Positions 1,515-52,947 of a stretch of DNA of 64,000 nt are shown here, in pieces. The translations under genes and the position numbers were made by a program. Position 1 is the stretch's first letter. Every line of letters starts with the position of its first letter. Location: sequence record PQ356294.1. One strand, 5' to 3'. Below the pieces are notes generated by a model. It saw only the letters and a list, made by a program, of their open reading frames with translations, made no database searches and was not told where the DNA came from. This DNA is from Escherichia phage Ec_YwIITB1.

Positions 1515-1820
1515 AAATTTACCATACTAGTGAATGTAGTGCCATAATAACATCAGAAATGAAAAGCACGACTTGAATTAATCCGAACATTACTCCATAA
1601 TATAGTGCTACCAATAAAGTAGCAAGGGCTAATGAATAGCCCAAGATTTTCTTAATCATTAGTAGATAACAACACAAATGTTAAATATGCACACATACCC
1701 TGAGATAAAGCTTGTGAAAACACGCTGTTAGCATCGTGCAGATAGTTAAAACACATGCTACTATCCAACAAATAAATGAAATAACTCCTAATAATTTTGC
1801 GATATTCATAATATTCTCCT

Positions 1821-1982: not shown

Positions 1983-2063
1983 TCACTGGCGTCCGAAGAC
2001 GCCTTTGGTTTTAAGATTGTTACGATAGAACTGCATCACATGTTCGTTATGGAAATTACTCAT
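1983..2063 (-). CDS. stp: Stp peptide (26 aa) coding segment, in frame with the C-terminus of the ndd ORF
   Basis: Last 26 codons encode [26 protein letters not shown], which matches T4 Stp as recalled; internal ATG at 2063. Confidence 0.6.
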
Positions 2064-2534
2064 ACACACCACACATTTTGCATAATATACCTGCAAAACA
2101 AATTTAAAGTTATCAGCCAACATACGGTTCATTTCTTCAAGTGTTTGATACTCAGAATGATGATTACGAGTAAACGCTAAAGCTAACTGACCTTTTCCAA
2201 ATCCAGTCGTTAGAGGTTTCATCTTAGAAGCAGGCAAATAAAACACTGCGTATGGAACATTATTATTTGCAATAGTGCGCGCGAGCTGAGACCGACGTTG
2301 ACGAATATGACTTAGAACTGCACTGAACCCTTGTTTAGAACGCTGATTACCTACATAAAATCGTGCAGATACGCATGAACCATATGAACCATCGAATTCG
2401 CTTACTAAAAAGTAAAATCCAGGGTTAGATAAAATATCTTTGTGCGGAGTTCCCAAAAACCATTCACCGCCCTTGATTGTACCAATAACAGTTGCGCCTG
2501 CATTATTCAAATCAGTAACAGTCATATATTTCAT
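1983..2534 (-). CDS. ndd: Ndd-like nucleoid disruption protein ORF (183 aa as read, continuous with stp)
   Basis: ORF starting [26 protein letters not shown] in the ndd position between stp and denB; SD upstream. Confidence 0.6.
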
Positions 2535-19071: not shown

Positions 19072-19097
19072 ATTAATTCCTAGCGATAAAAACCAAA

Positions 19098-19550
19098 TTA
19101 ACGATTAGCTTCAATAATCTTTCTTTCTTCTTCAGATATTCTCCAGCGTAGTCCAACATCAAAATGAGCCCAGACCATCTTAACAAATGCATTTATATCT
19201 TTAATATCTTCAATAATGAATGTTTTACTTTTAGAAGGTTGACTAACTAATTTAACTTTATCGTCTTCAAACAGGTCAAAAAGACCATATTCATGAGCTC
19301 TTTTATAGCCTTTAATAGTTAAAGCTTCAGAAGAAGAAAACGGTGAATCAGTATTCTGCAAAATATCTTCAGTATGCTTTATAATTAGAATAACATTTTC
19401 TGGATATTTTCTTTCTTTTATATCTTTAATTAAAATATCCGGATTTTCTGCTAAAGGAATAATTAATGAGCACTTTTTATCAAGTGTATTTACTGATTTA
19501 CCTTCTTTAGACATAAATTCTATTGAATAATGTTTTGCTACTTCAATCAT
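19098..19550 (-). CDS. hypothetical protein (150 aa)
   Basis: Minus-strand ORF; the upstream small ORF ends with an overlapping stop. Confidence 0.55.
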
Positions 19551-20983: not shown

Positions 20984-20998
20984 GGTAAAATGAAAAAA

Positions 20999-21016
20999 GG
21001 ACTCCCGAAGGAGTCC
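20999..21016 (-). terminator. intrinsic terminator downstream of soc
   Basis: GGACUCCUUCGGGAGUCC followed by UUUUUU. Confidence 0.7.
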
Positions 21017-21027
21017 TTGAATTATTA

Positions 21028-21264
21028 ACCACCTATTTCTGTAGGCGTAAACATTGCAGCATTCTTAGTTTTCCAATCAGCTGCATCAGAAACTACGGTA
21101 GAATATGCTGCCTTTTCAGAAGGAAAGATTTGATAATGAGAATCTGCGATACGATGCTCGTTAGAATAAATTTCAAACGGAACAGAAACTTCCATACCTT
21201 TAACTTCTTTGCCTTCACCTGCTGGATGAGTAAAGGTCTTGATGTTAACGAAACCACCATAATA
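21028..21264 (-). pseudogene. soc: soc (small outer capsid protein) with start codon out of frame
   Basis: Frame encodes Soc-like ...GGFVNIKTF...HYQIFPSEKAAYSTV...AAMFTPTEIGG but lacks an in-frame start; the SD-proximal ATG at 21260 is offset by one base after a G-run. Confidence 0.6.
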
Positions 21265-21302
21265 AACTCCTTTATTGTTTAATTACAGGTGTATTTATAT
21301 CA

Positions 21303-21821
21303 TCAATAACCTCGGTCTTGACGAGCGAAGTTTTCAGCATTTTTCAAATAATAAAGTTTAAAGATTTCTTCAGCCGTAAGACCGAGACCTTGGAACATGT
21401 TTAGAACGAAATGAAGAATATCAATCATTTCGAATTTAATTTCCAACTGGTCTTGTGGAGACAAATCAGTAATTAAAGTTTCACGTCGTTCACCATGCTG
21501 AGCTTTCCAAGGTTTCCATACAGCAGATGCATCTTTTTCACCATTGCTCATACCACCAAGAGAAGTCAATAGTTCGCGGAATTCATCATCAATATAATCT
21601 TTTTGATTACGCAGCCAATCAACAACTTCGCCTGCGGTAGCCAAATCATCAGGATGACGGTTATATTCAGGTTTATCTTTAGCTAAACGAACCTGCAAAG
21701 ATTTCTGCATATCAAGCATAACCTGCAGCGGGTCTTTTTCATCACCGAGAATATCCCAGTATTCATTTTGAGCTTTATCAGCGCCTTCGATCAGTTGTGA
21801 ACATTCATTAAAGTAAGCCAT
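21303..21821 (-). CDS. 56: dCTPase/dCTP pyrophosphatase (gp56)
   Basis: 172-aa ORF from ATG at 21821 (MAYFNECSQLIEG...), AAAGGAAA SD; matches T4 gp56 as recalled; track start 21914 is a GTG extension. Confidence 0.88.
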   Translation of the reverse strand: MAYFNECSQLIEGADKAQNEYWDILGDEKDPLQVMLDMQKSLQVRLAKDKPEYNRHPDDLATAGEVVDWLRNQKDYIDDEFRELLTSLGGMSNGEKDASAVWKPWKAQHGERRETLITDLSPQDQLEIKFEMIDILHFVLNMFQGLGLTAEEIFKLYYLKNAENFARQDRGY

Positions 21822-43494: not shown

Positions 43495-43809
43495 TCAGCT
43501 GTAACGATAACACTCGTTTGATTTGCGCTTAGCAACTCGTTGAGAAGTATTATAATCAAAATCATCATCAATGTAAACTGATTTTTTCAACTTTCTTACT
43601 TCACCGCGTAATTGACGATTTAGCTCATCTTTAACTTCTGAATCGATGCCTTTCATTCTACGCCATTTATCAGAGCGAAAAATGTTTTCGACCATATCTT
43701 TATGACTTACACCATCAGGAGCTTTACGCTTTCCAAAATAGTCATAATCACGCACTTTTAAATCTTTACGACGATACGTTTTACCCATGGAGTTTAATTT
43801 CCTTAGCAA
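43495..43809 (-). CDS. hypothetical basic protein (104 aa)
   Basis: Lys/Arg-rich ORF downstream of an early promoter. Confidence 0.5.
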   Translation of the reverse strand: MLRKLNSMGKTYRRKDLKVRDYDYFGKRKAPDGVSHKDMVENIFRSDKWRRMKGIDSEVKDELNRQLRGEVRKLKKSVYIDDDFDYNTSQRVAKRKSNECYRYS

Positions 43810-43981
43810 CTAAACTAAATACGGCACGATCGCAAATCAAGCGTTTATTCCATTTAAGTAAGGATAGTGAACCTCTAGATCATCTACTGCTGTAACAATA
43901 ACAATATGTCCGTTCAATAATACTGATCTCTTTTAATCTCTTTATCAACCATATCAAATCCTCAAAGGCAATTCATATGTT

Positions 43982-51883: not shown

Positions 51884-51913
51884 ATTATACCACATCCTTG
51901 TGGCAAAGTAAAC
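51884..51913 (-). promoter_or_regulatory. early promoter
   Basis: Minus-strand GTTTACtttgccacaaggatgtggTATAAT; near-duplicate of the rIIA.1 promoter. Confidence 0.6.
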
Positions 51914-52173
51914 TAGTTTAGTGCATTTAGTGCATTGTTCAGTTTAGAACGTTGCTTCGTAAGATTTTTGACTTTTTCTTGAGCTTTTTCTAGCATCTTT
52001 TCAGCTTCTAACACTTCATTAGTTGCTTTAACGAGTTCATCATCTACTGCCTTGATGGACTTCTCAATCGCATCCGCATGCCATTTTTCAACAGGTTTAA
52101 GACTCGGATTTTCAACAGGAAGAAAATTCGCTTTATTGAATTTCCATGCATCTTCATTACCTGAACTATACAT
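51913..52173 (-). CDS. hypothetical coiled-coil protein (86 aa)
   Basis: Minus-strand ORF; weak SD. Confidence 0.45.
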   Translation of the reverse strand: MYSSGNEDAWKFNKANFLPVENPSLKPVEKWHADAIEKSIKAVDDELVKATNEVLEAEKMLEKAQEKVKNLTKQRSKLNNALNALN

Positions 52174-52211
52174 CCAAAATTTAGGATCGTTTGATGAGTA
52201 ATTGGATAAAT

Positions 52212-52877
52212 TTAAGTTATCTTGTACTTCATGCTTTTTCTCTTGAACGGAACTTCATCCTTTCTCAAAAAATCGTATTTAAATGAAACGATCATATCAA
52301 GTTCATACGTTGTTGTATGTTCCCAATTTCGCTCAAAATGAGGTAAAATCTTAGACTGAACTGCGGCAACAACATCCATATACTTAAATGCTTCTGTCAA
52401 CTGTGATTTAAGGCATTCGCAAATTGAAAGAGAATTTTTTGTATTAGGTTTAAAGCTAATTCGCGCAGTTCTGCTATTTTCTTTTAATGGTCTTACTTCC
52501 ATCTGAAGAGTATAACCATCAAATTTCAGATTCTTTAAGTTAATATCAGAACCTTTTAATCGACTCGCAATTGATAAAATTTGTTTTAATTGTTTACGGA
52601 ATAGAGCAATAAATCTCCATTCAATACGATAATGATTTGGATTGAAAAATCCAGATGATAAATCGACCTTACTTTGGCCGACACCTTGAACAAATAGAGG
52701 ATTTTTATAATTAATGGTTTTACAGAAATCAGTGAGCTGCTCACGAGCAGTCATTTGTGTAATATATCCTGCTTGGTTAAAATTGCGCACCCATTCACTG
52801 CTGTTCAGATGTTTAAAGGCATGAATGGAACAATTAACTTTACCAAGGTCTAAATTATTTTGACACAAAAACGTCAT
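52212..52877 (-). CDS. hypothetical protein (221 aa)
   Basis: Minus-strand ORF; ATG overlaps the stop of a 21-codon upstream ORF (ATGA). Confidence 0.5.
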   Translation of the reverse strand: MTFLCQNNLDLGKVNCSIHAFKHLNSSEWVRNFNQAGYITQMTAREQLTDFCKTINYKNPLFVQGVGQSKVDLSSGFFNPNHYRIEWRFIALFRKQLKQILSIASRLKGSDINLKNLKFDGYTLQMEVRPLKENSRTARISFKPNTKNSLSICECLKSQLTEAFKYMDVVAAVQSKILPHFERNWEHTTTYELDMIVSFKYDFLRKDEVPFKRKSMKYKIT

Positions 52878-52947
52878 AGCATCACGAGTATAGCTGGCAT
52901 TACGAGAACCATATCTTCAATTTGAGAACGAGTTTTCATGGTATTCC

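Follow-up and report, generated by a model that had tools for sequence, protein, structure and literature searches.

A soc gene whose start codon is one base out of frame in a T4-like Escherichia phage: a null allele as written, with recent mutation and record error as its two main explanations

Does the soc gene of Escherichia phage Ec_YwIITB1 still encode the capsid decoration protein Soc and, if it does not, has the gene been broken in the phage or only in its sequence record? The question arises because, in the 64,000-nucleotide stretch analysed here (the window), the start codon of soc is one base out of frame with an otherwise complete gene body. A first-pass annotation of the window had left the cause of this arrangement between a null allele, a laboratory mutation and a homopolymer sequencing error; the analysis below narrows that choice without closing it.

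The window covers the first 64 kb, at the left end, of a Tequatrovirus genome (T4-like, Straboviridae). Over a 24-kb stretch it is 95–98% identical to the Shigella and Escherichia phages sb1–sb4, pSs-1, ESh16, EPIMAM01 and UGKSEcP2, and it is collinear with sb3 and pSs-1 from coordinate 1 of each. Only one phage record among the 50,697 in the collection reached at least 99% identity in the 24-kb search, and none of the 50,697 matched the window exactly at the junctions tested. The soc gene is encoded on the minus strand, with gene 56 (dCTPase) on one side and the mrh-region ORFs on the other, in synteny with ESh16, KNP5, sb2, sb3, HY01 and ECO07P2, in which a 237-nt soc CDS is annotated at this place.

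We also note that the soc locus (window 21261..21302) is mosaic across the Tequatroviruses. An RB69-type soc lies directly 3′ of gene 56 in the window, sb2/sb3, pSs-1, KNP5 and ESh16; in HY01 and ECO07P2 the two genes are separated by about 370 bp of soc.1/soc.2-like ORFs that are absent from the window. UGKSEcP2 and EPIMAM01 are the closest relatives of the window in the flanks, yet they carry a T4-type soc of 81 aa. This mosaic distribution of soc types suggests that alleles have been exchanged here.

The identity of the gene body is clear when one G is added behind the ATG. The product restored in this way (MGGFVNIKTF...EIGG, 78 aa) scores 68.7 bits against the Pfam Soc family PF16855 (cutoff 27), and it aligns with RB69 Soc (PDB 3IG9) from end to end (residues 1–78 to 1–78, E = 2e-45, 69 of 78 residues identical). 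T4 Soc, as present in the capsid cryo-EM structure 5VF3, is more distant (E = 5e-17). The restored protein is 100% identical over its 78 aa to the soc product of phage ECO95 1-6-1. Thus the Soc-like minus-strand frame reported by the first-pass annotation is borne out, and the comparison with RB69 and T4 Soc that it had called for gave matches to both. A single-sequence AlphaFold2 model of the Soc body was poor, with a mean pLDDT of 51. GFVNIK and EVKGMEVSVPFEIYSNEHR are example peptides of the protein, which has a mass of about 9 kDa. By family profile, homology and synteny taken together, the gene is assigned to the RB69 type of soc. It has no intact ORF, however; it is soc by descent and, as written, a pseudogene or null allele.

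The signals around the gene are all intact, that is, promoter motif, Shine-Dalgarno sequence, ATG and terminator (all coordinates of the locus are on the minus strand). Just 3′ of the gene 56 stop codon (TGA, 21305..21303) lies the motif TATAAATA (21299..21292), which is invariant in all six aligned sequences. We take it to match the −10 consensus of T4 late promoters and to be the putative late promoter of soc, which is a late gene in T4. The Shine-Dalgarno sequence AAGGAG (21272..21267) is located 6 nt 5′ of the initiator ATG (21260..21258), and its predicted duplex with the 3′ end of 16S rRNA has an energy of −8.2 kcal/mol at a spacing of 5, which beats the 10th-percentile value (−5.4) over all ATGs on the same strand. 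Downstream, just 3′ of the soc stop, the hairpin of an intrinsic terminator, AAGGACTCCTTCGGGAGTCCTT, lies at 21018..20997 with a T run behind it; every aligned relative has this hairpin, differing in one or two stem bases.

Between these signals two reading frames have come apart. The frame that opens at the soc ATG reads MVVSLTSRPLL... (MVVSLTSRPLLIQQVKAKKLKVW...) for 55 codons to a stop codon ending at 21093 (21260..21093), and this 55-aa out-of-frame product matches no Pfam family. The first-pass annotation had placed the Shine-Dalgarno-proximal ATG at 21260, in another frame and followed by about 55 codons of nonsense; both coordinate and length were correct. The Soc body (21025..21258) lies in the −1 frame relative to that ATG and comprises 77 sense codons (GGFVNIKTF...TEIGG) and a TAA; it starts GGT GGT TTC at 21258, reads GGFVNIKTFTHPAGEGKEVKGMEVSV...TEIGG and ends at the TAA at 21027..21025. 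Upstream the Soc frame is closed by a TAA at 21285..21283, followed by TTA AAC AAT AAA GGA GTT TAT TAT, and it has no ATG, GTG, TTG or near-cognate start 5′ of its internal ATG at 21195. That ATG (Met22, 21195..21193) is the first in-frame start codon of the Soc frame and is a poor initiation site (see below).

Comparison with relatives shows what separates the two frames. In a six-way alignment of about 320 bases (the window with ESh16, ECO07P2, HY01, KNP5 and sb2), the sole window-specific difference is ATGGTGGT, where the five relatives have ATGGGTGGT. It is a one-base gap, ATG-GTGG against ATGGGTGG, so that the window has a run of GG in place of the relatives' GGG (ATG-GGT to ATG-GT, deletion site at 21257..21258). 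It is because this G is missing relative to the relatives that the ATG opens a 55-codon nonsense ORF and the Soc body is left in the −1 frame. The earlier proposal that one extra G after the ATG would give MGGFVNIKTF... is upheld, since the relatives' GGG restores the 78-aa Soc.

The same is seen in the wider collection. The 144 phage records with the same allele have ATGGGTGGTTTC without exception, against ATGGTGGTTTC in the window. When the 71-nt deleted junction was used as the query, no exact match was found in the 50,697 phage records; the 144 records that matched it all carry the extra G, none of the 144 matches reaches 99% identity, and every match listed spans 72 nt. Two records of phage T2 are among the 50,697, and as neither matches the junction exactly, the window is not one of these two. 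An exact search with a 32-mer of the deleted allele gave no matches in IMG/VR, the GTDB genome set or the JGI metagenomes, and the wild-type 33-mer, used as positive control, gave three matches in IMG/VR. Neither aberrant soc product, of 55 or 56 aa, is on record in any assembly searched. The soc lesion is a single-base difference from every relative and not a chance pattern of ORFs.

Could Soc still be made from such a gene? One way would be recoding, in which the deletion is real and Soc arises either by a −1 ribosomal slip in the first codons or by addition of a G by RNA polymerase. The single point in its favour is that promoter motif, Shine-Dalgarno sequence, Soc body and terminator are perfectly kept. 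The 55-codon zero frame (21260..21093) contains no X_XXY_YYZ heptamer, however, the first codons (AUG GUG GUU UCG) offer poor −1 re-pairing, and a G run of 2 nt is far too short for transcriptional slippage. The two-frame arrangement occurs in none of the 144 related records, all of which have one continuous soc ORF, so nothing points to selection for it. Neither of the features by which we judged a programmed −1 ribosomal frameshift, a slippery heptamer and a conserved two-frame arrangement, was found here, and we regard recoding as highly improbable.

A second way would be internal initiation at Met22 (ATG 21195), giving a truncated Soc of 56 aa that still decorates the capsid. This ORF is open, and its product, the tail from Met22, retains a score of 49.2 bits against Pfam Soc (cutoff 27). 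Against this, the anti-Shine-Dalgarno duplex at Met22 is weak (−3.9 kcal/mol, compared with −8.2 at the true start) and abuts the ATG at a spacing of 0, and ribosomes translating the overlapping nonsense ORF would run straight across the site. The product would span only positions 22–67 of the Pfam Soc profile and lack positions 1–21, which include the conserved GFVNIKTF. In the β-tadpole fold of Soc the hairpin of strands 1 and 2 is the trimerising tail (PMC7602432); from that description of the fold, GFVNIKTF is probably strand 1 of the sheet and of the trimerising hairpin tail. A functional protein from Met22 seems to us every bit as improbable as one from recoding.

Recoding, near-cognate initiation and internal initiation were all rejected, since there is no heptamer, no near-cognate start and only a weak anti-Shine-Dalgarno duplex at Met22. 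Translational rescue of any kind, even when all routes are added together, is very unlikely. As far as can be read from the gene as written, it has no route to functional Soc and is null.

A real deletion also has bolder variants. In one, a reduced amount of Soc would be made by non-canonical −1 slippage on AUG GUG GUU UCG, which, if true, would be a spontaneous case in which frameshifting sets the dosage of a capsid decoration protein; in a milder one, a wild lineage would have abandoned Soc along with several accessory genes, and a lineage truly without Soc would be a natural test of the importance of the Soc clamp outside the laboratory. We give such variants very little credence.

Whether the missing G is missing from the phage DNA or from the consensus alone is a question about the whole window, whose genes were screened for integrity against sb3 and UGKSEcP2 and later against sb2 and EPIMAM01 as well. 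About 96 of about 125 CDS are full-length relative to two relatives. The replication and nucleotide-metabolism genes that are essential in T4 are every one intact in the window, and gp43, 41, 61, 44, 62, 45, 46, 47, 39, 52, 56, 42 and 55 are all full-length.

Other genes are broken. The acridine-resistance gene ac (1652..1809, minus strand) has a private −1 deletion (CC to C) at about 1736, where the window reads ctgca-cgatgc and UGKSEcP2 reads ctgcaccgatgc; a frameshifted product of 42 aa replaces the 52-aa protein, and none of 446 matching phage records shares the deletion. An nrdC.5-like gene of 340 aa (51913..52939, minus strand) is interrupted twice by private insertions of 2 nt. One duplicates TC at about 52904, near codon 11, and the other lies at about 52246–52251; ORFs of 221 and 86 aa remain, and neither insertion was found in any phage record. 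The exact 42-aa ac product and 221-aa nrdC.5 fragment are not on record in the assemblies searched. A 60-aa ORF (about 43781..43951, minus strand) is broken by private −4 and −1 deletions (about 43861–43917); it is intact in sb3, UGKSEcP2 and EPIMAM01 and is 177 nt long in sb2, and UGKSEcP1, its best match in the database (94.9%), has 5 nt more. In the mrh region, a TAT-to-TAA (or CGG-to-TAA) stop at 19098..19100 (minus strand) lies at codon 151 of a 156-aa ORF (19080..19550), so that the last six residues are lost relative to sb3 and UGKSEcP2. Finally, the loss of the ndd stop codon has produced an in-frame fusion of ndd and stp (1983..2534); a 19-nt remnant lies at 2064..2082. At this point the sequences of relatives such as KFS-EC3 and ECp13 are longer by about 147 nt, and sb3, sb2 and UGKSEcP2 have a TAATG stop/start overlap; stp has kept its own ATG.

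The records of two sister phages have broken frames of their own. In that of sb2 (locus L015, 29880..32576 and 21155..21607), the DNA polymerase occupies two separate CDS and gene 56 is cut short; in that of sb3 (L009/L010, at about 4381, 48815 and 56701), denB is fused to its upstream ORF, a C run interrupts a 129-aa ORF, and a 336-aa ORF is shortened.

Several features of the window, the full-length replication genes among them, suggest that the record can in general be trusted, and thereby argue for a real deletion in soc. Of its window-specific codon changes, 17% are non-synonymous, compared with 17% for UGKSEcP2 and 21% for sb3; the substitution spectrum looks natural, and we see no load of random error in it. 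The genes screened contain 437 homopolymer runs of at least 5 nt and no frame break at any of them, and the breaks that do occur are located at GGG, CC, a TC duplication and complex sites. Since the breaks lie outside long homopolymers, their profile is unlike that of run-length-dependent sequencing error. The +2, +2 and −4 changes, the nonsense codon and the ndd-stp fusion are not typical of error either, being of kinds that sequencers rarely invent, and two genes with two hits each fit pseudogene decay better than uniformly scattered error. All lesions fall in genes known or presumed to be dispensable. By our own estimate, however, only about 23% of the window is taken up by essential genes, and for that reason the absence of lesions from them is uninformative.

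If the cause is a sequencing or assembly artefact, the soc of the phage itself would be normal, reading ATGGGTGGT, and would yield Soc, and only the consensus would lack the G. Loss of one base from a 3-nt G run is a classic signature of consensus error, and a second private −1, in the short C run of ac, is present in the same window. The deletion is also unique against the 144 records of the same allele and absent from IMG/VR, the GTDB genome set and the JGI metagenomes, and an intact soc is the rule: in 961 of the 986 phage records with a tblastn match to Soc, a single match covers at least 80% of the protein. The rest of soc is pristine, with a protein identical to a natural allele and no secondary decay, which means that the event is either very recent or not real. 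Over the same region no gene is broken in UGKSEcP2 (by construction, since it served as reference) or in EPIMAM01 (apart from one gene cut by the end of the locus), and next to these two cleaner relatives the four broken genes of the window are unusual. The frame breaks in the sister records sb2 and sb3 are probably errors of the records and indicate roughly how often such errors occur; as one of those in sb2 splits the essential DNA polymerase, frameshift errors appear to be common in records of this clade.

Other features of the window speak against an artefact. No frame break was found in the essential genes or in the genes holding the 437 homopolymers, where run-length errors would be expected to strike first, the substitutions show no random-error component, and the other lesions (+2, +2, −4 and nonsense) are untypical of basecalling and come two to a gene. 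The ratio of private indels to substitutions cannot date the lesion, because the clade is mosaic and thinly sampled; against four relatives, 507 "private" substitutions remain. Overall, we lean towards a real null allele over an artefact. From the sequence comparisons we consider it somewhat more probable than not that the deletion is present in the phage DNA, as a recent loss-of-function allele and one of several lesions in accessory genes; the artefact is a serious possibility, though a somewhat less probable one.

If the deletion is real, a private −1 in the G run of the start codon and codon 2 would disable an RB69-type soc. Ribosomes would load at the strong Shine-Dalgarno sequence and ATG and make a 55-residue out-of-frame peptide, and Soc would not be produced. 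Soc binds between the gp23 hexamers of the mature capsid. By analogy with the T4 literature the phage should be fully viable, and its capsid, lacking the 870-copy Soc clamp, should withstand high temperature and a pH of about 10.6 far less well. The statement of the first-pass annotation that Soc is dispensable agrees with that literature, in which viable soc-null phages go back to 1977 (PMC3012670, PMC7602432). Soc protects against heat and alkaline stress (PMC10580926, PMC7602432), and Soc-minus T4 loses viability at pH 10.6, where added Soc restores survival about 10^4-fold (PMC3012670). On the strength of these studies we predict normal growth and an undecorated, less robust capsid.

A real deletion would give a natural Soc-less T4-like isolate that is less robust to alkaline pH and heat, which would be relevant if it were meant for phage therapy or storage. 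The empty Soc sites could take Soc-fusion proteins for display, and the allele would be one data point on the ease with which a decoration gene is lost. If the G is missing only from the record, the result is an annotation or quality flag, and the record would have to be corrected at soc; ac, the nrdC.5-like gene and the 60-aa ORF would probably need the same. For biology in general the case carries little weight; its practical value is as a flag for re-checking the record and as a caution on the stability of the isolate.

Three known systems are informative for comparison. RB69 Soc (3IG9/3IGE) belongs to the same Pfam family, PF16855, and the restored product shares its 78-aa length and its MGG(F/Y)VNIKTF N-terminus; unlike RB69, the window has its ATG one base out of frame and encodes no Soc protein as written. 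The Tequatrovirus (T4-like) backbone of the window belongs to a different genus from RB69. The intact RB69-type soc genes of Tequatroviruses (ECO95 1-6-1, ESh16, KNP5, sb2, HY01 and RB14, among others) share with the window the locus, promoter motif, Shine-Dalgarno sequence and terminator, at 97–99% DNA identity, and differ in that 144 of 144 read ATGGGTGGT.

The third parallel is with the laboratory soc-null T4 phages (amber or deletion mutants and the hoc− soc− display phages), which likewise have a null mutation in a dispensable decoration gene. Amber and deletion soc mutants of T4 were reportedly obtained by Ishii and Yanagida in 1977. Since Soc-null phages have been known for that long and are routine display platforms, the window holds no new kind of feature: it is an ordinary knockout or a sequencing slip, and not a new mechanism. 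As in the laboratory mutants, normal growth and infectivity together with sensitivity to pH 10.6 would be expected (PMC3012670, PMC10580926). Those mutants were selected or engineered in T4 itself and affect a T4-type soc, whereas the window comes from an environmental-type isolate, and its lesion, a −1 frameshift at codon 2 that looks spontaneous, is seen in the record sequence only.
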